The notes under the pieces were generated by a model. That model searched no databases. It saw nothing but the letters and a program-made list of their open reading frames with translations, and was not told the origin of the DNA. Shown here one piece after another: positions 9,031 to 64,000 of a DNA stretch of 64,000 nt. A program made the position numbers and the translations under genes. Where the stretch lies: NCBI GenBank assembly GCA_020718105.1, contig DYDA01000006.1:5442-69441 (forward strand), read 5' to 3'. Each line of letters opens with the position of its first letter. Positions within the stretch are counted from its first letter, which is position 1. This DNA comes from Micavibrio sp. (GTDB lineage Bacteria; Pseudomonadota; Alphaproteobacteria; UBA9219).

Positions 9031-9045
9031 ACGAGGAAAGAAAAA

Positions 9046-38538: not shown

Positions 38539-38618
38539 TTTTCCAAGGTTAACACCCCCCACGCTTGACAGCAAAGGGAAAATCCTTCTATCTACCGCCT
38601 CGACTTTTAGTGAGGTTT

Positions 38619-38874
38619 CTGGTTCGATTGTTTTAGTAAGGCGTGGGTGCGTAGCTCAGCGGTAGAGCATTACCTTCACACGGGCTAGAGATTGTGTGTC
38701 ACAGGTAAGGTTCTAAGGGCTATGGTTCAGGCTGTGGTTTGATTGTTTTAGTAAGGCGTGGGTGCGTAGCTCAGCGGTAGAGCATTACCTTCACACGGGC
38801 TAGAGATTGTGTGTCACAGGTAAGGTTCTAAGGGCTATGGTTCAGGCTGTGGTTTGATTGTTTTAGTAAGGCGT
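38619..38874. repeat. tandem array (2.2 copies, 115-bp period); each unit is the first ~39 nt of tRNA-Val plus ~76 nt of non-tRNA sequence
   Basis: gggtgcgtagctcagcggtagagcattaccttcacacgg at 38645 and 38760, each followed by gctagagattgtgtgtcacagg...gtaaggcgtg; intact tRNA starts at 38875. Confidence 0.85.
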
Positions 38875-38949
38875 GGGTGCGTAGCTCAGCGGTAGAGCAT
38901 TACCTTCACACGGTAGGGGTCACAGGTTCAATCCCTGTCGCACCCACCA
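38875..38949 (+). tRNA. tRNA-Val (anticodon CAC), CCA encoded
   Basis: Acceptor gggtgcg/cgcaccc, anticodon loop ttCACac, T-arm acaggttcaatccctgt; 75 nt. Confidence 0.85.
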
Positions 38950-39043
38950 CGCTTTTCAAGGGGTTAGCGATTTTGTAACCAGCTCAAAACATTACAGCTG
39001 TAATGTTTGATTATGGATGCGCGGCCACACGTGAGCACTCCAT

Positions 39044-41617
39044 TTAATCGAGATAATCAGTCTTAAGTTTTTTCAGATCACCATAGGCCGTGGCCAGTTG
39101 GCTTGCCGACGGCGGAGCATCATCATGCGGTCCGGGGGTCACATAAGAGTGAGCTGCCTTAAGTTTGCCTGTATGAGCAGGGTCTTTTGTGAGTAGTAAA
39201 TATACCGAATTGCTAAATTCGCCGAAGTTTTTCCCGTCATAGTCGGTGATTGAAGCCATTGCTTCGCCATCTTTAAGGCGCTTTCTAACGAGAATTTCTT
39301 TGCAAAAGCGCTCAATCGCCGCACGTGTTTTTATGGCACCCTCTCTGCGCTGGTCAGGGTCGTGCGATCTAATATATGGTTGAACTTTCGCAAGCATGGT
39401 AGCGAGCCCATCATATTGATTTCTAATTTCAGTCCCTAAAAGTGGGTCATTACGGATAATCTGAAACTGTGCCACCTGTTTATGTTCCCATCGATGCCCG
39501 ATGTCTTTCCAGCTTGAATGATCTTGCGTTGTAACAATGACTTGAACGCCCTCATTCAATAATTCTTCAATGACAGTTTGGGCAAAATTGGGTCTAAAAT
39601 CGTCATCACTGGTAAGAACAGGATCGTCAAGAACGATAAAACCAGTTTTTTCCTGAACGGCCCGTGCAAGAAACATGGCCAAACCAAGACAATGCAGCTG
39701 CGATGTACTGAAAACGGCCACGGCATCCCGAAACTTTGGATCACTACAGTCGTCATTCGCAGATAAACCGACCTTAATATCAATGGTGCGGCGGGCTTTG
39801 CTGCTGCGTCGTTGAATGGCACCGAAAAACGAAGGCTCATTAGGACGTAAGAAATCCCACCACACTTTAACACCTCCACTCATCTCATCAAACTTTTCGT
39901 CGGCAACTTTACCATTACCCTTTTCAATTTCTTTTATCGCCTTATCAAGTTCTTTGAACTTCTGTTCATAAGCAGATGTTAACTCAATGGCTTTCCATAA
40001 TCTTTTTGTATCAACTGCAAGGCTGACCAATTCCTCCCACCCAGCGGTGTTGGTGCTTTGGTCAACCGCAATTTTGAGGGGTGTCCCAAGCAATTGTGCA
40101 GCAAGGCCATAGCTCTGCTGGGTTTGCTGATAGGTTATTTGTGTCTCGTATATGGTTGCTAAGACTTGAGTTAAGCCGACGGGATCATCCCAGTCATCAA
40201 GTGTGTCTTTAAGGCCAGCAATATAATGCTGTGCTCTAGCAATAGCCCGTCTGAATACTTTAGCGGACTGAATTAGGTGTCGTGTTGATACAGTCCAGTC
40301 TGCAACAATGGCGTCATCCTGAACAAGGGAGCGCAAACGCGCTATAGTAAAGCCTTTATAGCGTCGCGCGCCGGGCGTTTCTTGTGTGAATTTGGGCAAC
40401 GAAGCATCGAGGGACGATGATGTAGCTGACAAGCTTGCTTCTAAAATCTGGCATGCATGTTTTATGGCACGTTCAGCAGTTTGATATGTTTCAGTCGCCT
40501 TCACTTGATCACAGATCAGTTGAATACGTTCTGGTGTTAAGACAGCCTTAGTCCCACATAAAGGGCAATCGGCGGCATCATGACTTTTGCATTCGGGCAG
40601 CGAAAGGGCTGCTTTGAATAAATCAACTAATCGACGAGTTTCAGCATCGATTTTTTTGCGCTCTTCTATGAAAGATTTAACGGCATGATCAAGGAGAGAT
40701 GAATTGTTCTCCCATGGAGTAAATGGGCTGCGCACAAATAAGTCGAGAGGAAACGATTTTGCGCGGCGATTCTGTAGTTCAAGGCTGATCTGTGTGGATT
40801 GCTCCGGTAGTGTAACTGCCGGAGTGATTCCAAGACTGATTAAAAATGCTGCCGTTGTTGCAAGAATACTTTTTTCGACACCTTCCTGCGTTTTCGATTT
40901 GCGTATTGTGTTGGCAGTTTTCAATCCCGGTATAGCTTCGACAGTTTGAAGATAAACGATTTCACTTAATATGGGCGCAGGCATGCTCGCTATAAAAGTA
41001 GCTACACTGGCTCGGAAATCTTCTAAATCCTGAGTATCGAGGACAGCCCTAAAATAGGAGGCACGCTCGTTAGGCCCAGCAGAAAAAATATAACCTAGAG
41101 TGTGTTGTGCTAACACAGGCGCAATCAAAGGTGCTTGAGAAAGCTTAATGCCTAGTCGCAATAGGATATCGTCTTCTACACAAGACTTGCCGTCAATTTC
41201 TACTCTGCTTGTGCAACCCAGATTTCCTTTTTTATAATCTTCGAGTAGTATGCGCTTTAGATGCCTTATGGTTCCGTCACTGCAAAGCACTTCCGCAGCG
41301 ACAGAAACGGGAGCCGTGTCTGGGATATGAACATTGCGAAGGCAGTCTGAAAATTCTTCTTTCGAACTTGATTGCAGTTCCCGCCTGACAAGCTGGCCGG
41401 TTAATAGAAATTCGATGGCTTCAGTTAAACTTGTTTTACCCTGACTGTTCCCACCCCACAACACAGCAACGGTGCTGGGCAATTCAAAAGTTTGTTTTCC
41501 TGTGCCGAAGCTTCGGAAACCATGAACCTCAATCTTTTTTAACTGTGGACGTGTCACTGGACGCCTGTTTTTCTGTATAAAAGTCATTAATAGTTTGCGC
41601 CATGCGTTTATGTGCAT
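39044..41617 (-). CDS. Rad50/SbcC/SMC-like ABC ATPase with coiled-coil CxxC hook and extra C-terminal domain
   Basis: N-terminal Walker A GGNSQGKTSLTEA; central predicted coiled coil containing CPLCGT; C-terminal signature/Walker B (GFIVLDDP) and H-loop-like TTQDH; 857 aa (true start possibly Met11). Confidence 0.75.
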   Translation of the reverse strand: MHINAWRKLLMTFIQKNRRPVTRPQLKKIEVHGFRSFGTGKQTFELPSTVAVLWGGNSQGKTSLTEAIEFLLTGQLVRRELQSSSKEEFSDCLRNVHIPDTAPVSVAAEVLCSDGTIRHLKRILLEDYKKGNLGCTSRVEIDGKSCVEDDILLRLGIKLSQAPLIAPVLAQHTLGYIFSAGPNERASYFRAVLDTQDLEDFRASVATFIASMPAPILSEIVYLQTVEAIPGLKTANTIRKSKTQEGVEKSILATTAAFLISLGITPAVTLPEQSTQISLELQNRRAKSFPLDLFVRSPFTPWENNSSLLDHAVKSFIEERKKIDAETRRLVDLFKAALSLPECKSHDAADCPLCGTKAVLTPERIQLICDQVKATETYQTAERAIKHACQILEASLSATSSSLDASLPKFTQETPGARRYKGFTIARLRSLVQDDAIVADWTVSTRHLIQSAKVFRRAIARAQHYIAGLKDTLDDWDDPVGLTQVLATIYETQITYQQTQQSYGLAAQLLGTPLKIAVDQSTNTAGWEELVSLAVDTKRLWKAIELTSAYEQKFKELDKAIKEIEKGNGKVADEKFDEMSGGVKVWWDFLRPNEPSFFGAIQRRSSKARRTIDIKVGLSANDDCSDPKFRDAVAVFSTSQLHCLGLAMFLARAVQEKTGFIVLDDPVLTSDDDFRPNFAQTVIEELLNEGVQVIVTTQDHSSWKDIGHRWEHKQVAQFQIIRNDPLLGTEIRNQYDGLATMLAKVQPYIRSHDPDQRREGAIKTRAAIERFCKEILVRKRLKDGEAMASITDYDGKNFGEFSNSVYLLLTKDPAHTGKLKAAHSYVTPGPHDDAPPSASQLATAYGDLKKLKTDYLD

Positions 41618-41864: not shown

Positions 41865-42899
41865 CTATATACTTAATGCTTCCGGCTTTTGCCTAAAGTT
41901 CAAAGCACTTACCGCCCTTCTCAAATAATCCGGTGCATGCTTGCCATAGACCTTTTCCACCGTCTTTTCGCTGTCCCCCAACAACCGAGCTACCTCAGAC
42001 AAAGGAACCCCGTCCATAATCAGCCAAGTGGCCGCTGTGTGCCGCAGGACGTGTGGGCTGGCCGTGATGCCGCACTCTTTGCAAAGCCGCCTGAAGCCCG
42101 CTTTAACAGATGCAACGCGCTTACCATGATACTCGATTACATAGTCAGCCTCGGCCAGCTCTCTGGCCGTCTTCAAACTCTCATAAACGTCATCGTTCAT
42201 CGGGACAACGGCGCGACGCTTGTTGCCCCACCCTCGCCCGAAGTCCATAAGCCTGCTTTCAAAGTCAATTTGTTTCCAAGTCAGGTCCAAAATTGCGCCG
42301 GATCGGGCGGCTGTTGATATTGCAATCTGAATGAACAGCCTCATATGGTGCGACTTGGCCTTGCTCAACAGCAACTCTACTTGTTCTCGCTTCAACCACA
42401 GGTCACGGGGCGGCGGCTGATGCACAGGCATCTTAAAACGAGGCTGATGCGCGATCCAACGATTGCCTTCCGCAAAGTGAAGTGCTGCCTTGAGCGTCCC
42501 CAACTCGCGCAGGATCGTCCCATCCGATACACCACGTTCTTTGGCATATTTCAGCAAAAGGGCATTGCTGATATGATCGGGCTGAAGGTCTCCAAAGAAC
42601 TTATTCAAGGTTCTGGTGTGATGTTCAATGGTCTTCAGTGATCTTGTATTAACCCCATGTTCCTTTTTGTAGCGATCAAGAAGATACGCCAATGTCGGCT
42701 CTGGCGGCGGCGGTGGATTGTCTAATCCCGCGATGAATTGGGAGCGGTATTGCTCGGCTGCTCTCCAATCCGTTGTCCCCGTTGAAACGCGCCTTGTCTG
42801 CATCCCTGTTTGGGTTGAGACATCGCGCTCAGTCCAGACGATATAGATTGTGCCATTGTCATGCTGCCAGAATCTGTATTGTTCTTTGTTCCTCGACAT
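41865..42899 (-). CDS. int: tyrosine-type site-specific integrase
   Basis: C-terminal catalytic region with R..HxxR..Y signature (LRHTAATWL...VEKVYGKH); 344 aa. Confidence 0.9.
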   Translation of the reverse strand: MSRNKEQYRFWQHDNGTIYIVWTERDVSTQTGMQTRRVSTGTTDWRAAEQYRSQFIAGLDNPPPPPEPTLAYLLDRYKKEHGVNTRSLKTIEHHTRTLNKFFGDLQPDHISNALLLKYAKERGVSDGTILRELGTLKAALHFAEGNRWIAHQPRFKMPVHQPPPRDLWLKREQVELLLSKAKSHHMRLFIQIAISTAARSGAILDLTWKQIDFESRLMDFGRGWGNKRRAVVPMNDDVYESLKTARELAEADYVIEYHGKRVASVKAGFRRLCKECGITASPHVLRHTAATWLIMDGVPLSEVARLLGDSEKTVEKVYGKHAPDYLRRAVSALNFRQKPEALSI

Positions 42900-43140: not shown

Positions 43141-44109
43141 CTACGGCTCTAGCTTCGTCTGTTTGCCGACGGCAGATATAGGAAGTGGACTCTCTTTGGG
43201 TCGCAGGTTTGGCTCAATGGACTGTTTGCTCTTCAGGAACTCCACAGCCCGCGTTGCGTGTGCGGCTGCGGAGAAGATTAGCTTACGATCATCCTTGAGG
43301 GCCTTGAGCCAATGGTCGATATAGGCGGCATGGTCTTCACAGATTTCGGGCGTTATGCCTAAGTCTGCGCACAAGAACGCCGAGCCGATTTCGGCAACCA
43401 GCTCCTCCTTGGCATAGCCCTTATCACCCCAATCCTTCCGGCCAAAGTCGCGGTCAAGGCGGGTTTTATGTTTCGTCCAGTGCGTGACCTCATGGGACAA
43501 AGTGGCGTAATAGCTCTCGCTATCCTTAAAGGCATCGATCAACGGCATTTGGACGTAATCGGTGCTTTCCGCATAGAAAGCCCTATTACCGCCATGGCGG
43601 ATTAACGCGCCCGTGTTGCGGATAAAATGATCGACCTCATCCACACGTTGGCCGAGGGTTGGTTCGGGCTGATGGGTGGCGTGTTTATAGAATCGCTCAG
43701 GTAGGCCTTCGATTTGATCGATGTTGAAGACGTTATAGCCACGCAGAAACGAGCATTCTTTTTCTTCGCTCTCCCCCGTATGTTCATCTGTTTCTGTTTT
43801 CTTGGTCTTGTTGGCATAAACAATAAAGCTCGACTTTTCGCCTTTACGCACATGTGCGCCGTACTCTTCGGCTTGGGCAAAGGTCATCCATGTGGGGTTG
43901 AGATAGCCTTTCTCTAGTGTCGCTCCCCACAGGAGTAAGACATTCACGCCATTGTAAGGCTCACCGTTATGACGCAGGGGTCGGACAATGCGGCATCCGG
44001 CATTCTCGCCGCTCCAAGGTTTTTGCCAAGGCCGGACACCTTGTTCCAAATCGGCGATAATCTTGCTGGTCACGCGATCATACACATTCACAAAAGTTTC
44101 TTTGGTCAT
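43141..44109 (-). CDS. ardC: ArdC-like antirestriction protein (ssDNA-binding N-domain plus zincin metalloprotease domain)
   Basis: ArdC-N-like N-terminus and C-terminal HEVTHW (HExxH) motif; 322 aa. Confidence 0.85.
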   Translation of the reverse strand: MTKETFVNVYDRVTSKIIADLEQGVRPWQKPWSGENAGCRIVRPLRHNGEPYNGVNVLLLWGATLEKGYLNPTWMTFAQAEEYGAHVRKGEKSSFIVYANKTKKTETDEHTGESEEKECSFLRGYNVFNIDQIEGLPERFYKHATHQPEPTLGQRVDEVDHFIRNTGALIRHGGNRAFYAESTDYVQMPLIDAFKDSESYYATLSHEVTHWTKHKTRLDRDFGRKDWGDKGYAKEELVAEIGSAFLCADLGITPEICEDHAAYIDHWLKALKDDRKLIFSAAAHATRAVEFLKSKQSIEPNLRPKESPLPISAVGKQTKLEP

Positions 44110-44380
44110 GTTTCCTCCTATAGAAAACCCCGCGAGACAGGTGTCAGCGGGGCGGTTGATCGGATAGGTTCAGTACTATTGGTTTTTTATTTGTCCTTCT
44201 TCCTCCCCATCAGTTTGCGGATATGAAGCCTTTGGACGTAGCGGATTGCGAGCTTTTCCGATGTCCAAAGAATGATGGCCGTGCCGGGGACGATGACGCG
44301 AAAGATGCGCAAGCGGCGCGGCCTGACCAAGAACGTGTCGGTTTGGATGAAGGTTTTCTTTCTCATGAGCCTCCTTTCAC

Positions 44381-45136
44381 TTAGTGGTTGGACAACTCTG
44401 GCCACCTCACAAAGAACCAGCGCGGGAACAGATGGCCCCAGACCTCCCAATCGACAATAGCTGCCTCTGGCCAGCCTTTCTTTTGCGCGGCGGGGCGGAT
44501 CGGTACAGGGATACTACTGGATTTTTTCTCTATTGCCGTTTTGGTGGGCGTTAACTTTGTGCCTTTGGGTTTAGATGACGCAGACGGTTTGGCCGTTGAC
44601 GATCTCATTTTTGCTCGCGTTGATCGCTTCGTCCGTGCGCTACTTAATTCGCGCTTGCTAGGTTTCTTGCCCTGTCTTGGTTCAGTGCGTTTCAAACCAA
44701 GCTTGGCTTCCATCTCCTGTGCGACTTCTTTTGACTTCTTCCAGTGGTAGCCGGGCCAGACAGGCGTTCCCGTCATCAGACTGACGCGGTTCCAGATAAC
44801 GTGAAAGTGCTGCCGTCCGTCCTTGACGTGTTCGACAATCACGCGCTGGTGATGGAACATCTTGTAGCCATAGGCTTCTTCGCATCGATCCACGATGGCC
44901 ATCAGTTGCTTGTCGGTCAGATGCTCGCCCTTCATCGGGTTGATGCTGATATGGTGAAGCGGCTTTGTGCATTTTGTTTTGCCAGCAACCACCCACATAT
45001 TGTGAAACGCATCATCCAGATTATGGGCACTGGGGTCACTTAGTTCGACAAGGCGCGTCTTCTCGTTCTTGCCTTTCTCCTTCATATAGTCCGCAGCGGC
45101 CCTATAGCCGCCCCGTGTGTGGCTTTTGATAATCAT
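44381..45136 (-). CDS. MobA/VirD2-like relaxase (short form) with basic Lys/Ser-rich tail
   Basis: Relaxase His motif QHFHVIWNRV; RGGYRAAADYM N-terminal region; 251 aa. Confidence 0.7.
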   Translation of the reverse strand: MIIKSHTRGGYRAAADYMKEKGKNEKTRLVELSDPSAHNLDDAFHNMWVVAGKTKCTKPLHHISINPMKGEHLTDKQLMAIVDRCEEAYGYKMFHHQRVIVEHVKDGRQHFHVIWNRVSLMTGTPVWPGYHWKKSKEVAQEMEAKLGLKRTEPRQGKKPSKRELSSARTKRSTRAKMRSSTAKPSASSKPKGTKLTPTKTAIEKKSSSIPVPIRPAAQKKGWPEAAIVDWEVWGHLFPRWFFVRWPELSNH

Positions 45137-45188
45137 TCCGGCGCGTTGCCTTCGGACAAGGCTTGCAACACGGCCTGATGTGCCGTCA

Positions 45189-45701
45189 TCAACGAACGGG
45201 ATATCTCATCGCAACCATGGAGGTCCCCTGTCCGTTGGTTACTGTTCCGGCGTTCAGTTGCTTGGCAATCTGGTTGAGGTTTGTGCCCTGCTTAGTCAGT
45301 TCAAAATGAACCTTGTGGAGCAGACTGTTCCGTTCAGGGTCAAGGAGCGGAGATTTCAAAAGCATGAGCCGAGCATATTGGCTGGTCGAGAGATTGTTTC
45401 TTTCAGCTTGCTCGGCCAGCCGTTCCCGTTCCTGCAAATCCAGCCTTATGCCTAGGTGTACGGATCGAGCTTTCTCGGGCTTTAGCCCGCTGGAGTTATG
45501 TAAAACGGCGGAGCGTTTCACATAACTCTCAACTTGCGCAGAGCTTTTAGCTTTCTGGGTAGACTGTTTCACAGCCGGATTGTCTGACAATGAAGGGGAA
45601 GACTTGAGGGCTTCATAAGCCCGCGCCGGACGGCAAATGCCTAACGCGGCTCGTCGGAACTGTTCACGCACGGGTAGTGTCTTGGCACCGTCTTGTGACA
45701 T
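45189..45701 (-). CDS. mobC: MobC-family plasmid mobilization relaxosome protein
   Basis: MobC-like motif LTKQGTNLNQIAKQLNAG; 170 aa; directly upstream of the relaxase. Confidence 0.8.
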   Translation of the reverse strand: MSQDGAKTLPVREQFRRAALGICRPARAYEALKSSPSLSDNPAVKQSTQKAKSSAQVESYVKRSAVLHNSSGLKPEKARSVHLGIRLDLQERERLAEQAERNNLSTSQYARLMLLKSPLLDPERNSLLHKVHFELTKQGTNLNQIAKQLNAGTVTNGQGTSMVAMRYPVR

Positions 45702-45805
45702 GCTGTATCTCCGGTTCGGGTTTTGGGGAAAGTATCCTGGGCATAAAAAAGGCCCTCTACCCTATGTGTGCAGAAGGCCTCAATTATGTTCGTAAGATCA
45801 GTTAA

Positions 45806-46315
45806 TCAGGGATCACACACTTCAATCGCCGCCGAGTGCCAAGCCACCGCCAAATGGCCAAGGCCGCGCCGCAACTTTTCATAGGCACGGGCATTCCAGA
45901 TATGGTGGTTATTGCCACAGACGGTCACGATCACGTCAAGTTCATCGAAAGGTAATGTGTCGTAGGCTTCTTTCAGTTTGGTCTCGCTCGTGGTTGGCTT
46001 CCTTACGGCTTGGGCCTCAGTCGTAGGTCTTGTTTCAGGCTGGCGGCTGAACACAACGCCATAGTAAACGCGCCGAAACTCTATCCCCGTCTTATGCTCC
46101 GCTTTGTTAATAACCCCATGATCCCGATAGGCATCGAGGGGGCATTCCCAAACGGCCCTGAACCGCGTGGCCACGGGATTGCCATCGGCATCCCATGCAA
46201 CCACTTCTTCTTTCACGCCGCCATTGTGCTGGGCGCGTTCCTTTGTTGGGGCCACATCAGCGGGCGGCTTAGAGATTGTCGGATTGTTCTGAAACTTGCT
46301 CATCGGCTCCTCCAT
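45806..46315 (-). CDS. hypothetical protein
   Basis: 169-aa ORF upstream of mobC with a protein-like composition; no motif I can name. Confidence 0.5.
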   Translation of the reverse strand: MEEPMSKFQNNPTISKPPADVAPTKERAQHNGGVKEEVVAWDADGNPVATRFRAVWECPLDAYRDHGVINKAEHKTGIEFRRVYYGVVFSRQPETRPTTEAQAVRKPTTSETKLKEAYDTLPFDELDVIVTVCGNNHHIWNARAYEKLRRGLGHLAVAWHSAAIEVCDP

Positions 46316-46530
46316 AATGAATGGGTCAGAAGGCTCTGCAACATCAACTATACACGACTCATAGCACGGATTTCCTAAATGTCAAGAGCAGATATTCATG
46401 GGGAATACATATTCTTTCCATAGAGTACACGCAATACGTCATTTCACATAGATTACACTTGATATGACGTGATATGCAGGCTACCCATTAACACTTACAA
46501 TTTCCATTGCATCATTCATGAACATAGTCT

Positions 46531-47199
46531 ATGGTATCCTTCATGGACATTACAGGCAGACAAATACGCGCCGCACGCGGCCTCCTCGGGTGGAAGATGG
46601 AAGACCTAGCCGATAAGGCAGGCCTGACCCGTATCACCATTCGCCAAATTGAAAACGAAATAGTACAGCCTCAAGAAAAGACGCTGGCCAAGATTTACGC
46701 AGTTTTCGATAAATTCGGCGTTGAGTTCCTGCCCGACGAAGGCATGCGTATCCGCAAACAGGACACCCGCATTTATTCCGGCAAGGCTGGCTATCGGCAG
46801 TTTCTTGACCATGTCTATGAAACGCTTAAGGGTGGCGGTCATATACGCCAGTTCAACTTTAGTGACATGCGCTATCTCCCCAACGAAGAGACCTTCGTCG
46901 CGAATCACTTCCTGCGTATGGGGTCGATCAAGGGACTGGATTCAAAAGTGCTTGAAATCGGGGATGAAACTAAACACCCCCTCGCCTATTGCTCTTATCG
47001 CAAGAATGATAAAAAGTTCAAGGATATGGCCCCTTGGTACCTTTATGGCGACTATCTTGTTTTGTCGCTGAATGAAAGCGGCGGAAAACGGGAGTTTATC
47101 ACCATTCGCTCCAAACTGCTGGCTGAGCGTTATCTGAAAGAGTTCGATATCTTCTGGAACATGGCAACTTCTGAGAAAAAGAAGAAGGGCACCAAATGA
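46531..47199 (+). CDS. XRE-family HTH regulator with C-terminal domain of unknown function (paralog A)
   Basis: N-terminal Cro/C1-type HTH (IRAARGLLGWKMEDLADKAGLTRITIRQIE); paralogous to 62591..63292; 222 aa. Confidence 0.8.
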   Translation: MVSFMDITGRQIRAARGLLGWKMEDLADKAGLTRITIRQIENEIVQPQEKTLAKIYAVFDKFGVEFLPDEGMRIRKQDTRIYSGKAGYRQFLDHVYETLKGGGHIRQFNFSDMRYLPNEETFVANHFLRMGSIKGLDSKVLEIGDETKHPLAYCSYRKNDKKFKDMAPWYLYGDYLVLSLNESGGKREFITIRSKLLAERYLKEFDIFWNMATSEKKKKGTK

Positions 47200-48350
47200 C
47201 AGACTTTGAACATTGGCACGAGCAACCCGGCGGTCTTCATCTTGCGGTTGTCCCTTTCAATAAGGACAATCCTGACCATCGGGAGGCAGTTGCCAATGTC
47301 ATGCACGCCTCGATCCAAACCATTGCACAAGTCCATGGAGCCTCTTTCAGTGAAAGAGGCTTTCGCAATAATATGCGGGCCCTTTATCGTGGCGATCTTG
47401 AAGTTGATCTTTATCTGGCCAAGTGGGAGGTTTGCCAACCAAAGTCCAAGCCCATCTATCTTGGCGCAGCTATCAAGTGGAAAACGGCTGGCTTTGACGA
47501 GATGGGCAATATCCATGGCGGCATCTATGACGAGGATATTTGTATCCACAAACCACAATTGCGCCAGCTCATCAAATTAAAGCCGAGGGATAAGGCGTTT
47601 CCGAAACGAAGCCTTGCCGAGTGTTTCGATCAAATCAAGCTTCAGGATTTATTGCAGCAAGACGATCTCTGGTATCGTTTTGGCGAGATCGATCCCGACA
47701 ACACAACGATGATGCGCTCGTTGCTTCAGAATGATGCCTTGATTGGAACGCCACAGGATAGTGCTGTTCTTGAGTTCAAGCGTTTTCCCAATAATCTCTT
47801 GGATACAATCCCGATGGATGTCGAGATTATGGATATGGGCCGCGCTTCAACGCCCAATATCTTCGCCACACGATTAAGTGACGGCATTATTGACATTCGT
47901 TTTGCTGTAACCAAGGGGCAAGCCACAGCCGCCGGAAAGCCCCGCCCCGATATGCGCCCATGGCATAACGGAAATCTGCCAGAAGACCCCGCAATTTTGC
48001 ACGCCGCCCTCGCCTCCTCCATGAACGCGATTCAGAATAAGATTTTGGATAGCGAGTGGGGATCGCAGAGCGAGGCGATTGCATCCAATCCCATCATCCC
48101 GCTTCGCGCTCTTCGCCCTGAAGTTTTGAGAGACTTGTGCACGTCCTGCGCAAGTGATCTAGTCGCCAGCCCGGAAACACGGGGCAGCACCTTTATCCCG
48201 CCCATACCGGAAGCCCACGTTTTTGTCATCAAAGACAAGCCGATGCTCGATGGCCTTAAAGCCATCGGAGCCCAAAACCGCACCTTCGGCGGCAAACTCA
48301 TGATGCCAGGGGTGAATGAGATTAGATCGCGACAAGGACTAATTCTGTAG
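47196..48350 (+). CDS. hypothetical protein co-transcribed with XRE regulator A
   Basis: 384-aa ORF with ATGA start/stop overlap with the XRE gene; no recognizable motifs. Confidence 0.6.
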   Translation: MTDFEHWHEQPGGLHLAVVPFNKDNPDHREAVANVMHASIQTIAQVHGASFSERGFRNNMRALYRGDLEVDLYLAKWEVCQPKSKPIYLGAAIKWKTAGFDEMGNIHGGIYDEDICIHKPQLRQLIKLKPRDKAFPKRSLAECFDQIKLQDLLQQDDLWYRFGEIDPDNTTMMRSLLQNDALIGTPQDSAVLEFKRFPNNLLDTIPMDVEIMDMGRASTPNIFATRLSDGIIDIRFAVTKGQATAAGKPRPDMRPWHNGNLPEDPAILHAALASSMNAIQNKILDSEWGSQSEAIASNPIIPLRALRPEVLRDLCTSCASDLVASPETRGSTFIPPIPEAHVFVIKDKPMLDGLKAIGAQNRTFGGKLMMPGVNEIRSRQGLIL

Positions 48351-48870
48351 CCTTCCTGACTTACGGCATTGAAACCGCACCGACCAAGCAAGGCGGCAGA
48401 ATGATCTTGGGCCGCGAGCTTGCTGGCATAAGGCTAAGTTCCGTTTCGACCAGTTTCCAGACCATCAGGCCAAACTGTTTCAGCTTATCATCCTTATGCT
48501 GTGCACGTTCTGCTGGTGATCTCGCATAAAATGGTGAAGCCGTTGGGGCCACTCTCTTCATCATATTTTTGCTATCGTGAAGGAAACGTTCCCGACTGTC
48601 CAAAAAATATTCGAACGCTTCAACTGAACGAGTGCAGACGTCTTTCGCGGCAAGCTTCATCGCAGCACGAATTGTTTTTACATCGGCACCTTCAATGGCC
48701 TCATAAAGGCCCATGCGTTGCTCGGTTAGGCAGACTCGGTACAGCCGCGAATTTCAGAACAAGCTGGCCGATGAGATTAAAGCCGCACCAGATGGCGCGG
48801 CTTTTCCGGAAGCTTTGGTCGATTACATCCCCCTCAGACAACAGCTTGCACAGTGCAAATAGGAAGCTTC

Positions 48871-51528
48871 TTATTTGCGAAACTGCGCTGATAGTCCAGA
48901 GAGAGTTGTGTTGGGCCTAACAGCATCGTGAGGCACGAGAACGTATGTCCACGGCTTACCACCGTTCTCCATCTCGTGCTTCGTGGCCGCTTCGCACCAC
49001 TTGATGGCGGCACGGGCTTTTTGTTGAACGGCGTCCGCTTCAACTTCATCGGCACGTTTGGTTTCGATGAGGAACTTCTCTCCGTCTGTTTCTACGACAA
49101 AATCCGGTTCATATCCTTCGTTATCATTTGTGTAGATTTTGACGTCATTTCGGAGGGGTTTGAACCATTTGAGGACTTCCTTGCTATCTTCGAGTAAAAT
49201 GGCCATCTGGCGCTCGGTGTCTGAATCAAACTTCTGCTGCGGGTAAAGGCACTTTGAAAAGCCCTCAAATACCATCCCGCGTATATCCGAAACATTGGCG
49301 AGGGTCTGCCGAAAGTTTCTGACTTTTTCTCCCGCATCAATTGTCACCGCGCCCATTTTAGGCTGTTCAAAACCACGTGTGACTGAGGCCTGAAAATCCG
49401 TATAGCCAAGTTTTACATGCTCATTCATCTGCGCGTGGATTAAATCGGCGAGTTTCGTGCGGTAAAATTGGACAACATTTTTGGTTTTATCGGCATCCTT
49501 ACCCAAATATGAAGCGACATACGCCACCATCTGCCCCGCCAGCTTGTAAAGCAGGTCTGCGTGATCGTCATAAGAGACGTCATCCTTATCAATCAAAACG
49601 GATACGACGTAATCTTCTAAACGCGCTTCTTGCCCTATAGCTTCTCCCTTGGCCATTTCTTCGCGTTCAGAGGTGCGTAAATGCTGGATGAGGATTTTAT
49701 CGTCCACTGGCTGAAGGTGCGGAAGGTCTTTTGTGTTTAGATCAAAATCCGTGAACTCATAGCTATTTGATCCAATAGGTGTCACGGTCACGCGCGGAAT
49801 ATCGATGGTGTTATCGATATAGGCCTTAATTTGCCTCCGCACTATGTCTTCAACATTTGGCTTGTCCGCGATAACGTCAAGTGAGCCTTGTGCGGGCGTC
49901 ATTTTTTCCATCACGCGAGCAACCATTTTTTCCTGAACCTCTGGGTTCAAAAGGTTCCGTGAGCTTGGTAAATGTTCTTGTTCTTTAATCGCCTCAAAAA
50001 CGGCTCTTGCAATAGGCCGCTCAGCTTCAGTAAATAAAGGCTGTTGCTCTGGTTTTGTGCCTTCGCCAGAAATTATCCGTTCGATATTCGACTTAATCTC
50101 AACCGCCTGTTTGGGCTTTGCAGCAATGTCCTTACCAATTATTACACCAGTGCGGATGATAGAATGCTGATCGTTGGCCTCCTTGATAATTTCGTCAAAG
50201 CGGTCATGGGCAACGATGGTTAAACGATCCACGGCAGCAACGCCTGTGCGCTTGCCATAGGGCAAACGAAGGCCGCGCCCAATGGACTGCTCGACTAAAG
50301 TGCGTGAGTTGGCTGCACGCAAAGGCACAATGGTATAAAGGTTGGTAACGTCCCATCCTTCCTTCAGCATATTGACGTGAATGACGATTTCGGTCGGCTC
50401 ATTGGGATCTTCGACGGCAAGCAAACGTTGAACGGTCTCATCCTTTTCCTCGCCACGCTGGGCTGAGTGAACGGTGATAACGCGATCCTTGTAACGACCA
50501 TCAAAAAAGGCATCTGACTTGATCATCGCCATCAAGTTTTCGGCATGCGTCGTGTCCTGCGCCACCACAAGGATGAACGGTTTCACATAAGGTCGTGAAT
50601 TATTGTCGGCATAGACCTTCAACTCAGCCTTTGCGTTTTCATGAATGCAAATGGCGTCTTCCAGCTTGATCTTTTCGAGCTCGTCTTCCGTAAAATTCTT
50701 CGGGTTGAAGTTCTCACGCGTCGCAACCGCCGGTTCCTTCACATAGCCATCTTCCATCGCCTTATAAAGGGGGTAGCCGTAAATGACGTTTTTGAAAGGG
50801 ATGGCGTTCTTCCCGTTTTCAATTTGAGGCGTCGCGGACAGTTCAAGGCCGATAATAGGGTTCAGTTCGTTTAGTGCCCTGATGCCCGCCGAGGCGCGAT
50901 AACGGTGTGATTCATCCATCAGCAACACGAGATCGTCTAGTTTAGAAAGATATTCAAAATAGCTTTCGCCCAGATATTCCGAAAGCCGCTTGATGCGGGG
51001 TGCTGCACCTCCGCGCGTTTCGGAATTGATCTTGGAGATGTTGAAGATGTTGATATGGATGTTGTCAGCCTGTCCGTACAAATCCGTGCCGCGAATACCG
51101 CGCCCGCTTTCATAATTATCGCCCGTGATGACTTCCGGCGGCGTGATGGCAAGCTCGGCAATGCCTTGAAAGACGTATTTTGGCGTGTTGGGCGTAAAGT
51201 CGGCGATGAGCTTGTTATAGATCGTCAGGTTTGGTGCCAATACAAAGAAGTGTTTCATCCCATGCGCAAGATGCAAATAAGCAATGAATGCGCCCATAAG
51301 CCGAGTTTTGCCGACGCCCGTTGCAAGGGCAAAGCAGAGAGATGGAAAGTCTCGCTCAAAATCCTCAACACTCGGAAACTCGGACTTGATGGTCTCAAGA
51401 GCGGCGACCACGTCGCGATCTTTGTCGAGAGAGATGATCTCTGTCACACGCGCAAGAATCTCAAGCGACTCCTTCTGCGGTGTGCGGAGGGACAGACGGT
51501 TCGAAATGGCGTTGAGATGACGATTCAT
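48871..51528 (-). CDS. res: type III restriction enzyme Res subunit (SF2 helicase plus C-terminal PD-(D/E)xK nuclease)
   Basis: Walker A ATGVGKT, DEAH-like LMDESH, C-terminal PDFVVETDGEKFLIETK nuclease motif; 885 aa. Confidence 0.9.
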   Translation of the reverse strand: MNRHLNAISNRLSLRTPQKESLEILARVTEIISLDKDRDVVAALETIKSEFPSVEDFERDFPSLCFALATGVGKTRLMGAFIAYLHLAHGMKHFFVLAPNLTIYNKLIADFTPNTPKYVFQGIAELAITPPEVITGDNYESGRGIRGTDLYGQADNIHINIFNISKINSETRGGAAPRIKRLSEYLGESYFEYLSKLDDLVLLMDESHRYRASAGIRALNELNPIIGLELSATPQIENGKNAIPFKNVIYGYPLYKAMEDGYVKEPAVATRENFNPKNFTEDELEKIKLEDAICIHENAKAELKVYADNNSRPYVKPFILVVAQDTTHAENLMAMIKSDAFFDGRYKDRVITVHSAQRGEEKDETVQRLLAVEDPNEPTEIVIHVNMLKEGWDVTNLYTIVPLRAANSRTLVEQSIGRGLRLPYGKRTGVAAVDRLTIVAHDRFDEIIKEANDQHSIIRTGVIIGKDIAAKPKQAVEIKSNIERIISGEGTKPEQQPLFTEAERPIARAVFEAIKEQEHLPSSRNLLNPEVQEKMVARVMEKMTPAQGSLDVIADKPNVEDIVRRQIKAYIDNTIDIPRVTVTPIGSNSYEFTDFDLNTKDLPHLQPVDDKILIQHLRTSEREEMAKGEAIGQEARLEDYVVSVLIDKDDVSYDDHADLLYKLAGQMVAYVASYLGKDADKTKNVVQFYRTKLADLIHAQMNEHVKLGYTDFQASVTRGFEQPKMGAVTIDAGEKVRNFRQTLANVSDIRGMVFEGFSKCLYPQQKFDSDTERQMAILLEDSKEVLKWFKPLRNDVKIYTNDNEGYEPDFVVETDGEKFLIETKRADEVEADAVQQKARAAIKWCEAATKHEMENGGKPWTYVLVPHDAVRPNTTLSGLSAQFRK

Positions 51529-51533
51529 AGGGA

Positions 51534-52025
51534 TTATCCGATGTTAAGAAGTTCGCGCCGCTTGGAGTCAAAAGTATTAAACACATTCCGATTTACTGAT
51601 TTCAGTTGTTTGACAGAACGCTCAACAGATTCCATATACGAACTTTGGTCTGTGGGATGTCCTTCTTCAAGTGAAGTAAGCATATGAGACAAACAATTTT
51701 GCAAATCTGTATCATCTGGAAGCAATCCTTGGAGGGCTTTGATCGCTGCATTTGTACGAAAGGCTAGGTCGTAAGTTGGTTGATATATTTGAACCGAGCT
51801 TATCTGCTGCATAAAGTCAGATATAATATTAAAATGTGAGGCCAGCAGTTCAGCCTGTTGAATTCTTCGAGATTTGTTTGCTTCTTGAGCGGAACGTTCT
51901 GCCGCATCGCTTGAACGTTTAGAATCTCGTTTTGCCCACACGGAAATGCCTGTTCCGGTCGCGGACATACACAGGGCGAGAAAAGAGAGCCAATTTGCTA
52001 TATCGTCACTCATCGTCGCCTCCAA
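51534..52025 (-). CDS. hypothetical protein with N-terminal TM helix, between the mod remnant and res
   Basis: 163-aa ORF, 5-nt gap to res start, 20-nt overlap with the mod-fragment stop. Confidence 0.5.
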   Translation of the reverse strand: MEATMSDDIANWLSFLALCMSATGTGISVWAKRDSKRSSDAAERSAQEANKSRRIQQAELLASHFNIISDFMQQISSVQIYQPTYDLAFRTNAAIKALQGLLPDDTDLQNCLSHMLTSLEEGHPTDQSSYMESVERSVKQLKSVNRNVFNTFDSKRRELLNIG

Positions 52026-52914
52026 ACAAAGAGGGTTCGGAGGATTTGGCTTTTGCCTTGGCCTTAGCTTTCAGTTTTCGCGGGGTTGGGATATCGACTT
52101 GCTCCTCTTCGGCCAAGGGAAGGTTTTGGACGTTGAGGCTGTAATCGTCGTGGCCCCATTCGCATTTGGTCAGCACGGCGCGGGGGATTTTGCGCAGGGT
52201 TAGGTTGGGGAAGGCCTCGGCTTTGCCGCGAAACGCCGAGCAGCAGATGAGGAGGCTTCGATTGTCGCCCACTTCCTCGGACAGGGCGGCGAGTTGCGCC
52301 TGATCTAACGTTTGGGTGGTGACATAGATGAAATCCGTCTCGGTCGAATGCCCTTGCTGCCAATAAACGCTGTCACTCGGCGCATAGGTGAAGCCCATCA
52401 GCTTGCACATGGCCTGCGTCAGCATGACCGCGTTGTATTCCTTGTTGATGACAGCCTGGCTGTACTTGTCCATCGTGATGAGGGATGGTGCGAGCGCGAA
52501 ATACCGAAAACCGCCGCCGCCTTTCCACGCTGCCGCTTCGGTAATGCCACCTTTGTCCTCGCCATCAATGACTTTCTTGAGGCGCGGGATGATATGAGTA
52601 TGGCAATGCTCGCCAAGCTCAATCATAATCCAACGTCGCCTCATTTTATGGGCGACAGCACCCGTTGTGCCGGAACCAGCAAAGGAGTCGAGGACAAGGT
52701 CGTTAGGGTTGGTAGCAATATGAAGAAGTGTATGAATTAGACGTTCAGGTTTGGGTGTTGAAAAGACATCATTGCCAAAAAGAGCTAACATTTCCTTCAT
52801 GGCATCTTGATTGTGTCCAGCTAGTGTATGTTTCCATACCCGTCCCCCAAACAAGCCCTGTTCGTACGAGAGCACCGCAAGTTGCCACATATTCGTCTTC
52901 CGTGGAAAAGACAC
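52006..52914 (-). pseudogene. mod: truncated type III DNA methyltransferase (Mod), C-terminal fragment only
   Basis: Contains motif I region (VFSTPKPERLIHTLLHIATNPNDLVLDSFAGSGTTG) and a Mod-like C-terminus. The N-terminal DPPY motif and target-recognition domain are absent. Its 5' 146 nt overlap the upstream ORF in another frame. Confidence 0.65.
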
Positions 52915-53428
52915 CAGATTCTATCGTTTCCTTCTGTGTGCGCCTATAAGCCTCGGTCGCAGCCCTACTGATTTCTTTTGTGTCTAATTGATTGGCTTTT
53001 TCTTTCTCGATTTGCTCATTGAAAGATTTGTGCAGCTTTCCTAAGACAATGATCTCTTCATATCGCAGAGAATCGATAATGTCCGCATAATATAAAAACT
53101 CATCGGCTCTCAATACTTTTGCTGCCTTTTGCCCTGCGATAATGCGCGCAAGAAGTCGAAGATTTGTTCGCGCGGTTCCTTCCTGTGCAGCTCGCATGTA
53201 GCGATAAACGATTGCTGCCACTTCATCAACCTCACAGGCTTCCCATATATCTTTTTCTCCCGCGCTGATTTCTAAGAGTAAAATTTCTCTGGCTGCACTC
53301 AGTCGTATTTTGAAAAGGTTTTGAACCGCAATTCCTGCTACAGAGCCGCCAAAAACATCGAAAGCCCCTGCGATGTCTCCAATAAGGGCGCTATAATACT
53401 GCGGAAGATGTATCGTTTTATCTTCCAT
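52769..53428 (-). CDS. hypothetical protein, last gene of the SNF2 operon
   Basis: 219-aa ORF; start overlaps the MBL gene stop by 11 nt; no recognizable motifs. Confidence 0.55.
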   Translation of the reverse strand: MEDKTIHLPQYYSALIGDIAGAFDVFGGSVAGIAVQNLFKIRLSAAREILLLEISAGEKDIWEACEVDEVAAIVYRYMRAAQEGTARTNLRLLARIIAGQKAAKVLRADEFLYYADIIDSLRYEEIIVLGKLHKSFNEQIEKEKANQLDTKEISRAATEAYRRTQKETIESGVFSTEDEYVATCGALVRTGLVWGTGMETYTSWTQSRCHEGNVSSFWQ

Positions 53429-54371
53429 AGGAAGGCCTGCTTTTATAAATGTTTCTTAGGCTATCTAGGTTCATCGAAAGAAAATGATGCTTTTTGATGG
53501 CAAAGTCCTTGTACGAAGACACTTTTGTTGAGTTTGATATCAAATTGTAGACCCTAAAGACACTATTGTGCGGGGGTAAAGATTGGGCAATTATGTCGCC
53601 TGTTTTTGTTGTAAAGATCGGGATATCTAGGTCGAACAAACGATCTCGAACATCTTGTCTAGGATGTTCAAACTGATTGTCATAATTGCTGCTGCATACA
53701 GCCAGTTGAGGTCGGACACGTTCCAAAAAGTTTTTTGAGTTAGTAGGACAGTCTGCTCCATGATGAGCTAAAATAAGGATGTCAATTTCTCTCTTGAAAA
53801 TGCCACATCCCCTGAGGCGAGAGCCAATGTTCACATCTTCAACGTCGCCAAGACTTGCAACATTAAAACAGCCCTCACGAAACACCTTGACTGTCGAATT
53901 GTCATTGGCTTTTTCGAAAAAGATCTTAGGGCCATAAAAAACGTTTCTGTATCCAAGTTCTTCTGCTGATTTCAATCCATTAATGTAGTTTGGGTTTACA
54001 CACACACAACTCACAGGGGTGCCATCTATGGTTCCTTTGGCTTCATAATTCTCGATGGCTTTTTGGCATGCCTTGCCATTATCACTTTCGGGCAAATATC
54101 CGGGGTATTCAACCTGTTTGGGTTTTAGCGTTTCAAGAATACTTTTGAGATCAGAAAAAGTGCAGTGATCTTGATCCCAGCTGGTAATATGTAAGCAATC
54201 AATAAACTGCTTACCGCAAAGTTCCATTTCTTGGTGTATATTTGCGCGGTTAACGTCATTCAGTCGCGCTTCAATCAAGGTAAACTTTCCTGCACCAAAG
54301 TATGAAAAGGAAGAACCCGCTTGCCCCAGCTGGTATGCGCGAAAGCGAGTGACAATTTCTTGTGCGGCCAT
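53418..54371 (-). CDS. MBL-fold metallo-hydrolase related to the ComEC/Rec2 beta-lactamase domain
   Basis: ITSWDQDHC (S/H-x-D-x-DH) and LAHHGADCPTNSKNFLERVRPQLAVCSS resemble ComEC motifs (HADQDHIGG / KVAHHGSKTSS...FL..V.P..A..S); 317 aa. Confidence 0.7.
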   Translation of the reverse strand: MAAQEIVTRFRAYQLGQAGSSFSYFGAGKFTLIEARLNDVNRANIHQEMELCGKQFIDCLHITSWDQDHCTFSDLKSILETLKPKQVEYPGYLPESDNGKACQKAIENYEAKGTIDGTPVSCVCVNPNYINGLKSAEELGYRNVFYGPKIFFEKANDNSTVKVFREGCFNVASLGDVEDVNIGSRLRGCGIFKREIDILILAHHGADCPTNSKNFLERVRPQLAVCSSNYDNQFEHPRQDVRDRLFDLDIPIFTTKTGDIIAQSLPPHNSVFRVYNLISNSTKVSSYKDFAIKKHHFLSMNLDSLRNIYKSRPSYGR

Positions 54372-54862
54372 TATAACTCTTCCTTTCTGCCTCCAGAAGT
54401 TTTAGCGGCTCGAGACCTTTCTATTCCCCAAACGGCCTCAGAAACTTCTTCAAGTTTTTTAATAAATTTATCGACGTTGAGGCCAGCAACGAAAGCAAAG
54501 GCATAAAACCCAATTTCGCTTGCATCAGGCTGGATGCTGGATTCCAGCACGATCAACCCTGCCTTAAGAAACAGATAACTCGCACCGCCACAAGTAAGAC
54601 TCGCGATTGGGCGTAAGAAATACCATACCTGCCACCTGGAGTCCCATTGATCGTAAACACAGACGTTCAAATAGACTCCTCTCAAACAATAGAGGAAGCC
54701 ACCAAGTCCACCAGAAAATGCACAGATAAGCCCAACTTTGTATGGAACTAAAAGGGGTTCATGACCTGCTAACACAAAAGCAATCCCTGCAAGGTTAGCG
54801 ACGGCACATAAGACAAGGTAAAAGATAATAACTACAATCATTCGAGCCCCCACCTCGCGCAA
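54371..54862 (-). CDS. small integral membrane protein (3-4 predicted TM helices)
   Basis: Hydrophobic 163-aa ORF; overlaps SNF2 3' end by 25 nt and abuts the MBL gene start. Confidence 0.65.
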   Translation of the reverse strand: MREVGARMIVVIIFYLVLCAVANLAGIAFVLAGHEPLLVPYKVGLICAFSGGLGGFLYCLRGVYLNVCVYDQWDSRWQVWYFLRPIASLTCGGASYLFLKAGLIVLESSIQPDASEIGFYAFAFVAGLNVDKFIKKLEEVSEAVWGIERSRAAKTSGGRKEEL

Positions 54863-57846: not shown

Positions 57847-58116
57847 ATTCCCCCAGTCAAAAGACCTTATGTCATAAAGGCGACAAAGGATAGCTCTTAA
57901 TTCAAAAGATGATGACTTTCTAATCGGTTAGAGGTCATTAATCCACCTGTTGCGCCGTCAGGAACATGGCCTTTTCAAGGGCAACGAAGAACTGTTGGTA
58001 CGGGAGCGGGTCTTCGATGGCGGTGATATTGTATTGGGCGTTGGCGCGGACGATGGTTTGCGTTGTCCATCTGTCGCGAACGCTGACGGTCATGCGCATG
58101 GAATAGACCATATCAG

Positions 58117-58125
58117 CCCCCCCCC
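58117..58125. repeat. poly-C homopolymer tract (C9)
   Basis: ccccccccc in the 875-bp gap between the LanM 3' end and the SNF2 start, ~275 bp upstream of the SNF2 start. Confidence 0.9.
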
Positions 58126-58295
58126 GAACCCACAGGGAGAACCCGTGAATGGAATGAAAACACGAAAAGAGCGAAAAAATAGATGGAAGTTATCGTTTTC
58201 ATAGCTTTGCCGCCATGCTCAAAACCCCCTATTTTTCTTGAGTTTTCAAGTAATTTATGATAGCTTTGTGCGTATGGTGTGAAGGGATGGGGGTC

Positions 58296-58682
58296 ATGAA
58301 AAATTTAGCTATGCGCCTTAAAAGACCGACCGGATATTATCTTCCTCTTATCGAGGGGTATGTTGCTGCGCTCGCCCAGACAGACGCGATGGGTGTCTCC
58401 GTGCAACATGCGCGAAGCCTCGACAAGACGCTCAAAAAGAACGGACTTCGCCCCTCCGCGCGTTGGTATGGCCCGAAGAAAGCTTTCGTCCCGCCCCCCA
58501 GAAAACCGACTGCAACGCCATCCCTTTCGGCAAAGGGCAAAGCGGCAGTTTCTTCTCCCAAAGGGGGCGGTATCAGCAGGGCTTTGCGCGGCGTTGTTTC
58601 GATTTTTGCTCAACCAACGCCATACCGCCCTTCTAAGCCTGCGCCGATGCTGTTTGCGTATAAAAAGCCAGAATACACGTAA
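58296..58682 (+). CDS. possible small basic Pro/Lys-rich protein (low confidence)
   Basis: ORF MKNLAMRLKRPTGYY... preceded by a G-rich RBS; an overlapping minus-strand ORF is equally plausible. Confidence 0.3.
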   Translation: MKNLAMRLKRPTGYYLPLIEGYVAALAQTDAMGVSVQHARSLDKTLKKNGLRPSARWYGPKKAFVPPPRKPTATPSLSAKGKAAVSSPKGGGISRALRGVVSIFAQPTPYRPSKPAPMLFAYKKPEYT

Positions 58683-58721
58683 ACGAGTCAAAGAGGCTTT
58701 TTCGCCCGCGCACAAAGTTTC

Positions 58722-63967: not shown

Positions 63968-64000
63968 CTGGCCGATTCCTCCAGCGCGCCTTGCGCTGTC

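Follow-up and report, generated by a model that had tools for sequence, protein, structure and literature searches.

Tandem 5' fragments of tRNA-Val upstream of the intact gene in a Micavibrio contig: a possible amplified recombination scar at an integrase core site

The window analysed here, 64,000 nt of contig DYDA01000006.1 from the Micavibrio sp. assembly GCA_020718105.1, contains an intact tRNA-Val(CAC) gene (38875-38949) which is preceded, in the same orientation, by a tandem array of fragments of its own 5' part. Tandem Repeats Finder described positions 38620-38913 as an array with a period of 115, 2.6 copies, 99% matches and 0 indels (score 581). In a repeat-finding run two full units (38620-38734 and 38735-38849) were obtained, 99% identical to each other, together with a partial third unit starting at 38850. 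The 115-bp unit is present 2.56 times and continues into the intact gene. Each unit is made up of a 25-nt copy of the native leader (U), nucleotides 1-39 of tRNA-Val and a 51-nt junction sequence (Table 1). The 39-nt tRNA part is found in exact form at 38645, 38760 and 38875, and the fragments stop two nucleotides beyond the anticodon loop, at ...TTCACACGG. The spacing from a fragment to the next copy is 76 nt, and there is no open reading frame in those 76 nt. Units 1 and 2 differ in a single base (C38625 versus T38740). ARAGORN and Rfam called no tRNA on either of the two 5' fragments and recognised one intact tRNA-Val only.

The tandem 115-bp arrangement of tRNA-Val 5' fragments upstream of the intact gene had been reported in the initial annotation of this DNA, and was confirmed by Tandem Repeats Finder, the repeat search, ARAGORN and Rfam. 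Some details had to be corrected. The array had been said to begin at 38619, one nucleotide before its actual start at 38620. The 76 nt described as non-tRNA sequence have this length, but are composed of the 51-nt junction and the 25-nt native-leader copy. Units 1 and 2 are not fully identical, owing to the one base difference mentioned, and the fragments, thought to extend up to the anticodon loop, end 2 nt past it. A CRISPR array and a group I intron had been ruled out, and this view was upheld: the spacers of the array do not differ from each other and the repeat is a tRNA fragment, while the 5' half of the tRNA is repeated and not interrupted, and Rfam is silent on an intron. At E<=1 Rfam reported nothing besides tRNA and one spurious match.

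The same 2.56 copies are present in the public contig JAEMOK010000010.1 (L081), where three clustered bases of fragment 2 are substituted (window GAGCA, JAEMOK010000010.1 GCACC; Table 1). A 2.7-kb contig of another assembly (L082) is identical to the window up to 38795 and ends within the array. The array is present in two independent assemblies and is real as far as short-read assemblies can show. All sources of the array are short-read metagenome assemblies, which cannot fix the number of middle units, and the two full units are therefore a minimum copy number.

Table 1. Coordinates of the tRNA fragments, the array, the leader and the island genes in the 64,000-nt window
Feature	Position	Strand	Remarks
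tRNA-Ser(TGA) 5' fragment, nt 1-37, ending right after the anticodon	24538..24574	-	110 nt upstream of the gene
Promoter-like block	38565..38594	+	TTGACA 38565-38570, 17-18 nt spacer, CTATCT/TATCTA
Leader hairpin directly after the promoter-like block	38597..38616	+	stem-loop from the terminator scan
Leader copy U1, 25 nt, native, C at 38625	38620..38644	+	orthologous to the L083 leader, which likewise has C there
5' fragment 1, tRNA-Val nt 1-39	38645..38683	+	exact 39-nt match to the intact gene
51-nt junction, copy 1: 8-nt loop, degenerate inverted 5' half, ~10-20 leader-like nt	38684..38734	+	
Leader copy U2, T at 38740	38735..38759	+	
5' fragment 2, tRNA-Val nt 1-39	38760..38798	+	L081 differs at 38781, 38782, 38784
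51-nt junction, copy 2	38799..38849	+	identical to junction copy 1
Leader copy U3, immediately upstream of the functional tRNA-Val	38850..38874	+	
Intact tRNA-Val(CAC), island attL	38875..38949	+	ARAGORN; Rfam RF00005, 67.9 bits, E 4.6e-14
55-bp att identity block, tRNA nt 29-75 + 8 nt CGCTTTTC	38903..38957	+	
Island left end	38950..39014	+	95% identical to the L087 island; chromosomal flank only 66%
Cargo: SMC-type ATPase, LmuB-like	39044..41617	-	Pfam SMC_N, AAA_23; PADLOC LmuB, E 1e-17
Island tyrosine integrase	41865..42899	-	Pfam Phage_integrase PF00589, E 1e-22
Backbone: ArdC, 59-aa gene, MobA/VirD2-type relaxase, NikA-like, 165/169-aa gene, helix-turn-helix (HTH) regulator, 384-aa gene	43141..48350		
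Type III restriction-modification genes, DrmD-like SNF2 helicase, LanM-like protein, HTH genes	48361..64000		island continues to attR at window-equivalent 67757

Upstream of the array, on the opposite strand, an OmpR-type response regulator and its histidine kinase are encoded. Homologues of the response regulator were used, together with one pattern scan, to recover the corresponding loci of relatives, and identities given below for relatives are those of the response-regulator protein to that of the window. The block cTTGACAGCAAAGGG..., with the -10-like hexamer that comes after it (GTTAAT/TATTAA/TATCTA), is conserved in front of tRNA-Val in every syntenic relative (65-100% identity). A simple consensus promoter scan did not call this block (38565-38594); from its conservation it is taken as the probable tRNA-Val promoter. 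The hairpin that directly follows it has counterparts in the relatives, whose leaders, by reading the sequences, likewise open with a short hairpin. Since the array lies between the conserved promoter-like block and the gene, the whole array should be part of the transcribed tRNA-Val leader.

On its other side the tRNA-Val gene is occupied by an integrated element. An integrative mobilizable island of 28.8 kb spans the region from 38.9 to 67.8 kb and belongs to the ordinary type, in which a 3' fragment is displaced. Its right end was located outside the window, on an extension of the same contig (L111, reaching window-equivalent position 73292), where a perfect 55-bp direct repeat of 38903-38957 is found at window-equivalent 67703-67757 (attR). 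The outer flank of attR is homologous to the empty site of the relative L084 (83% over 108 nt), in which tRNA-Val directly abuts sequence homologous to the flank beyond attR and the site is thus unoccupied; core genes follow beyond this flank in L111. All features expected of a tRNA island were found: an intact tRNA with a cognate fragment in the same orientation, a tyrosine integrase, a length between 2 and 200 kb and an empty site in a relative.

The att repeat begins at nucleotide 29 of the tRNA, two nucleotides before the anticodon loop, and this places the crossover in the anticodon loop, a classic crossover core of integrases. The 5' fragments (nt 1-39) and the att repeat (nt 29-75) overlap in the 11-nt sequence CC-TTCACAC-GG, that is, in the loop plus two base pairs on each side. 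This overlap is the main argument for regarding the 5' fragments as products of events at the integrase core.

Comparison with the relatives showed that the 5' fragment is missing from 7 of the 10 syntenic lineages: L083 (89%, a single tRNA), which is the closest, L084/85 (79%, the empty site), L086 (73%, the contig ending at the island junction), L087/88 (71%, with an island of the same family), L092/93 (69%), L102/103 (67%) and L095-97 (65%). The sequence of tRNA-Val(CAC) is identical in the relatives L083-L091. One 5' fragment each was found in L091 (69%) and in L094 (70%), ending in both at ...CACACGG and separated from the intact gene by spacers of 85 or 77 nt. The pattern with which L091 was searched forced this endpoint; L094 was found via the protein and is unbiased for it. 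The L094 fragment carries the tRNA variants of its own lineage, with one mismatch, and is immediately followed by a terminator-like hairpin. Paralogy between the leaders before the fragment and before the gene in L091 and L094 was considered and withdrawn, the similarity not being significant (z<=1.3). A contig search with the response-regulator protein yielded relatives of <=63% identity only, none with tRNA-Val synteny. In the leader of L086, ~70-95 nt upstream of tRNA-Val, GGGTGC is followed by CCGTGTGAAAG, the antisense of the anticodon arm (10/11 bases), and this motif may be the remnant of a fragment-plus-inverted-arm unit.

Fragments of the 3' end of tRNA-Val, 15-19 nt long, are found in several relatives and in the flank of the window island beyond attR, some of them in tandem with periods of 76-101 nt. 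Tandem 17-nt 3'-end fragments (CCCTGTCGCACCCACCA) are located downstream of the gene in L094 (~8980-9460, minus strand), L102/L103 and L091 (200-400). Their spacers are 59-84 nt long and end in a GC-rich hairpin, and some of them hold an inverted copy of the T-arm (GCGACAGGnATTGnACC); the L094 array has at least 5 copies and is broken by a run of N. With 3' fragments downstream and 5' fragments upstream, the locus collects end-fragments on both sides. A crossover in the T-loop, suggested for the island family by the 17-nt fragments of the relatives, was refuted for the window island by its attR (nt 29-75), and the 17-nt 3' fragments belong to an older or different series. An older second 3' fragment, CTCGCACCCACCACG, is present at window-equivalent 67822-67840 (L111), ~65 nt past attR, in native terminator-like flank.

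The 51-nt junction does not occur again in the 64,000-nt window outside the array (0 occurrences expected by chance), and exact-pattern scans for it gave no match in metagenome or viral contigs. Viral-contig scans were equally negative for the boundary between the 5' half and the junction, and for the L091, L094 and tRNA-Ser junctions (the last described below). When compared with shuffled sequences, the window junction aligned to the reverse complement of the tRNA 5' half (p=0.008), as did the spacer of L091 (p=0.001), and the two spacers resemble each other (p=0.006). The last ~20 nt of the junction, together with U, resemble the orthologous leader of L083. An origin of the junction as a decayed 3' half was rejected: only an 8-12-nt motif, G(T/C)CACAGG(T), matches (p=0.02, 0.08, 0.007), and more of the junction is accounted for by the 5' half in reverse complement than by the 3' half, both in the window and in L091, a comparison that is blurred by an internal near-repeat of tRNA-Val (TCACACGGT and TCACAGGT).

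In the minimum-free-energy structure the 5' half and the junction fold into one long hairpin, both in the window and in L091, through the pairings CACACGG/UUGUGUG, UUACCU/AGGUAA and UAGAGC/GGUUCUA. The folding energies did not stand out against shuffled controls (z = -1.56, -0.74, -0.98 and +0.47), and the three sequences available are too few for a covariation analysis of the fragment hairpin. A terminator scan detected no terminator-like site within the array units. Two of the three substitutions in fragment 2 of L081 (G23A and A25C) are exactly those that perfect the hairpin. Such changes would be the expected outcome of template switching at a near-palindrome, although this is a single variant and thin evidence.

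A second 5' fragment was found in the window at the tRNA-Ser(TGA) gene (24338-24427, minus strand), from which it is separated by a GC-rich 110-nt spacer (Table 1). Among 31 tRNA genes in 1.69 Mb of loci, upstream 5' fragments occur only at the tRNA-Val and tRNA-Ser(TGA) genes described. The surroundings of tRNA-Ser are housekeeping genes near dnaA, with no island or integrase nearby. We calculate a probability of ~11/75 x 11/90 = 0.02 that two breakpoints placed at random would both lie in the loop +/-2 nt. The two tRNA genes with 5' fragments are situated on either side of dnaA (28155-29669), and both loci are near the likely replication origin.

Islands that displace the 5' part of a tRNA gene are known but rare. 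In the Islander collection anticodon-loop crossover sites form a main class (class 'A'), and a displaced 5' tRNA fragment was found in 159 of 3919 islands (PMC4383910). The window resembles such islands in that the fragment is located upstream of the gene in the same orientation, is broken at an anticodon-loop crossover site and belongs to an identity block that runs past the tRNA end (by 25 nt in the window). It differs from them in having only 76 nt, without an island or integrase, between fragment and gene, where such cases by definition have the island, and in that the fragment is tandem (x2) and the resident island is of the 3'-fragment type. The ordinary 3'-fragment island describes the neighbouring 38.9-67.8 kb region and not the array, as such integration makes no 5' fragments.

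Tandem fragments of a tRNA end are also known from the E. coli tyrT locus, where 178-bp units each contain the last 19 nt of tRNA-Tyr. As in the window, head-to-tail units composed of a tRNA end-fragment and a fixed spacer adjoin the intact gene. The tyrT units carry the 3' end and lie downstream, whereas those of the window carry the 5' 39 nt, lie upstream in the leader and end at the integrase core. The 3'-side arrays of the relatives, with their 17-nt fragments and periods of 76-101 nt, show an arrangement like that of tyrT.

A different arrangement was noticed in the Ralstonia phage RS-PI-1 (NC_047816.1; L107, 1019-2291). The phage contains a block identical to nt 10-41 of the host tRNA-Val(CAC), ending at CACACGGC; ~100 nt past the block there is a promoter-like TTGACA-17-TACAGT site, then a complete but different tRNA-Val(CAC) and the integrase gene, and the region is flanked by repeated GGGACAG motifs. 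Judged by its sequence, the region has the appearance of an attP through which the host gene would be interrupted and a substitute provided. A lysogen of this phage would read as the window does: 5' fragment, spacer, tRNA-Val, integrase. The two differ in that the tRNA of the phage is not that of its host and its integrase is 26% identical to that of the window; unlike in RS-PI-1, the conserved sequence of the window island begins only inside or after the tRNA. Literature searches on tandem tRNA pseudogenes or RS-PI-1 found nothing relevant. Another record, ON170174.1 ('Ralstonia phage YO102_1', UNVERIFIED_ORG; L109), includes a host tRNA-Ser, a tRNA-Val and an adjacent integrase gene. Its examined part is identical to Ralstonia megaplasmid DNA (L108), and the record therefore seems to include host or prophage-junction sequence.

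The array most likely consists of amplified scars and does not represent a new kind of gene. More specifically, and with moderate confidence, it can be understood as a scar of recombination, located on the 5' side of the integrase core site and amplified in tandem. In an initial step, a single event linked to the core would have created the order native leader, nt 1-39, short junction, second leader copy, intact gene. One possible route is that an element integrated through an attP corresponding to the gene's 5' side and was then almost wholly lost. Islands with a 5'-side attP, as this route would require, are a known minority (PMC4383910); RS-PI-1 would provide a precedent for the layout ([5' fragment]-[~100 nt]-[own tRNA-Val]-[integrase]), and were such an element to be lost when the two copies of the tRNA recombined, a short scar of precisely this kind would remain. 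The other route would be a nick or break made by the integrase at the core and repaired by fold-back and template switching, which would leave an inverted 5' half at the junction and a restart in the leader. Subsequently the 115-bp unit would have been doubled when its 64-bp repeats (the leader copy of 25 nt plus nt 1-39) recombined unequally or slipped. The array would then be transcribed as a 270-nt leader with two hairpins and removed by the RNase P cut at the true 5' end. Such passive carriage in the pre-tRNA leader would need no function to explain the array, and probably there is none.

The amplification step is supported by the single-base difference between units 1 and 2, which fits a recent unit duplication, with unit 1 retaining the C seen in L083, and the variation of fragment 2 between assemblies agrees with the reading of the array as a scar. 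Other proposals made in the initial annotation can be judged on the same data. That tRNA-Val is a repeatedly used target is borne out by the 28.8-kb island, the older 15-19-nt 3' fragment and the islands or tandem 3' fragments of the relatives, and a crossover in the anticodon loop agrees with an island repeat that starts at nt 29 and 5' fragments that end at nt 39. Serial integration and decay of elements with a 5'-half attP, which had been offered as one explanation, is not supported: the units are one base apart, unlike the products of independent decay, only 76 nt lie between fragment and gene, and the island displaces a 3' fragment. The other proposal, slipped duplication, is plausible for the second unit, which fits a unit duplication, but not for the first, as ~30 of the 51 junction nucleotides have no counterpart upstream of unit 1 or, as judged from the single-copy locus, in L083. 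The copy-number comparison recommended there gave zero in seven lineages, one in L091 and L094 and 2.56 units in L081; of the spacer that was to be sought elsewhere, the 51-nt junction was, as described, absent from the rest of the window and, in exact-pattern scans, from metagenome and viral contigs.

Several observations weigh against a scar formed at the integrase core. The resident island displaces the 3' fragment and so cannot itself yield a 5' fragment by normal integration, and an element with a 5'-side attP for tRNA-Val did not turn up in this group of relatives. The 5' fragment is missing from L087/L088 and L086, which share the island family; it is present in L091 and L094, but the stretch recovered from these contains no integrase-bearing island. 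The match of the L094 fragment to the tRNA variants of its own lineage fits a local origin or gene conversion equally well. The spacers are uniformly short (76-110 nt), an outcome not expected if a large island had decayed at random. The inverted-copy signal is absent in L094 (p=0.25) and at tRNA-Ser (p=0.91), and the similarity of the junction to the left and right arms of the island was not significant (p=0.18 and p=0.06). A match of T38740 to GTTTGATT in the left arm was treated as coincidence, the arm comparisons being non-significant.

An origin without any integrase is possible, though we think it unlikely. Template switching or fold-back in the highly transcribed tRNA gene would have duplicated the leader and the 5' half with inverted filler at the junction; the endpoint would reflect a DNA hairpin of the anticodon stem-loop and not a recombinase, and unequal crossing-over with gene conversion would prevent the 39-64 nt block from diverging from the functional gene. 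The inverted-copy junction is what such a process would produce, the two hairpin-perfecting substitutions in L081 have the signature of a template switch at a near-palindrome, and the lineage-specific variants in the L094 fragment, the tRNA-Ser fragment among core genes with no island near and the resemblance of the leader copy before the gene to the orthologous L083 leader point in the same direction. What local rearrangement does not predict is that the endpoint coincides with the att core of the island; nor is it favoured by the recurrence of this endpoint in three lineages, by the finding that both tRNAs break in the anticodon loop, or by the lack of an inverted copy at tRNA-Ser and in L094. 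The array could also have grown by repeated cycles in which an element whose attP matches the 5' half, and which brings its own tRNA-Val ~80 nt away, integrated and was lost, each cycle leaving one 115-bp unit. The layout of RS-PI-1, albeit read from sequence alone and with a putative att site, makes this conceivable, and the always-short spacers, the identical units and the host-type C in unit 1 followed by T in later units would be accounted for. Since this group of relatives yielded no element of that kind, and unequal crossing-over is the simpler account of two identical units, serial cycles of this kind appear rather improbable. Hardly less doubtful is the wider proposal that the units are footprints of disrupt-and-replace integration, with recombination in the anticodon loop through an attP like the 5' half, an own tRNA copy ~80-110 nt away and loss by recombination between the tRNAs, and that such scars are common at several tRNAs of the lineage, tRNA-Ser(TGA) being another.

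Selection for the 5'-half hairpins, acting through processing, stability or transcription of tRNA-Val or through tRNA-half-like RNAs, seems improbable to us. The fragment has persisted in three lineages with response regulators ~70% identical, although direct repeats should delete easily; the 5' half retains 97-100% identity next to diverging flanks; and in L094 a terminator-like hairpin follows the fragment. Gene conversion alone can account for the identity, however, and against selection stand the lack of the fragment in 7 of the 10 syntenic lineages including the closest, folding no better than that of shuffled sequence, the lack of an Rfam match and the three clustered substitutions tolerated in fragment 2. 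Very improbable, finally, is an assembly artefact, in which a short-read assembler circled a repeat loop and at most one fragment exists at the true locus. Every source is indeed a metagenome assembly and one contig ends within the array, but two long contigs from different assemblies give the same 2.56 copies and yet are 3 bases apart in unit 2. By our reasoning, three short-range combinations are present (C-leader with junction, T-leader with junction, T-leader with 3' half), each of which reads of ~60 nt would span, and single fragments occur in the unrelated assemblies of L091 and L094.

Fragments of tRNA genes are standard landmarks for mapping islands, and nearly always they derive from the 3' part of the gene and lie at the distal end of the island. 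By contrast, the fragments described here are standalone tandem 5' fragments in the leader of a working tRNA gene, and they end exactly at the core of the resident island. The new aspect would be the amplification of a 5' scar at an integrase core in the anticodon loop, where no island separates the fragment from the gene. Should scars of this sort prove general, tools that pair tRNAs with fragments would need a separate class for them, the target cores of integrases would remain marked even after loss of the element, and the scars would offer a natural case in which to study how tyrosine-recombinase activity, or hairpin-prone tRNA DNA, gives rise to local duplications. If disrupt-and-replace integration should be true, such arrays would be a countable record of past invasions. 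As a neutral scar only, the array would still be a useful marker of a hot integration site, and otherwise ordinary. In either case it puts two competing 5' halves into the tRNA-Val precursor, a testable case of the tolerance of decoy halves during tRNA folding.

The island itself has backbone and cargo genes (Table 1), the latter being defence cargo: the LmuB-like ATPase, the type III restriction-modification genes, the DrmD-like SNF2 helicase and the LanM-like protein. For its integrase NCBIfam gave only sub-threshold matches, to Xer tyrosine-recombinase and integron integrase families, and a viral-contig search found a single relative with 28% identity. The LanM-like protein had no PADLOC match. 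GC content drops downstream of tRNA-Val, to 0.45 at the LmuB-like gene. At the left end of the island there is a perfect 22-nt palindrome, AAAACATTACAGCTGTAATGTTT (38987-39008); its form ATTACAG(C)TGTAAT is present at both ends, here and at window-equivalent ~67605-67625, and the two palindromes may be binding sites for recombination proteins. Positions 41896-47880 share 82.9% DNA identity with the L087 island, compared with 65.7% for the host flank, indicating that the element moves horizontally. The slot between attL and the integrase holds the LmuB-like ATPase in the window (39044-41617) and an AAA ATPase plus an S8 peptidase in L087 (6121-9598). With the backbone still ~83% identical, this slot looks like a hotspot of cargo exchange.

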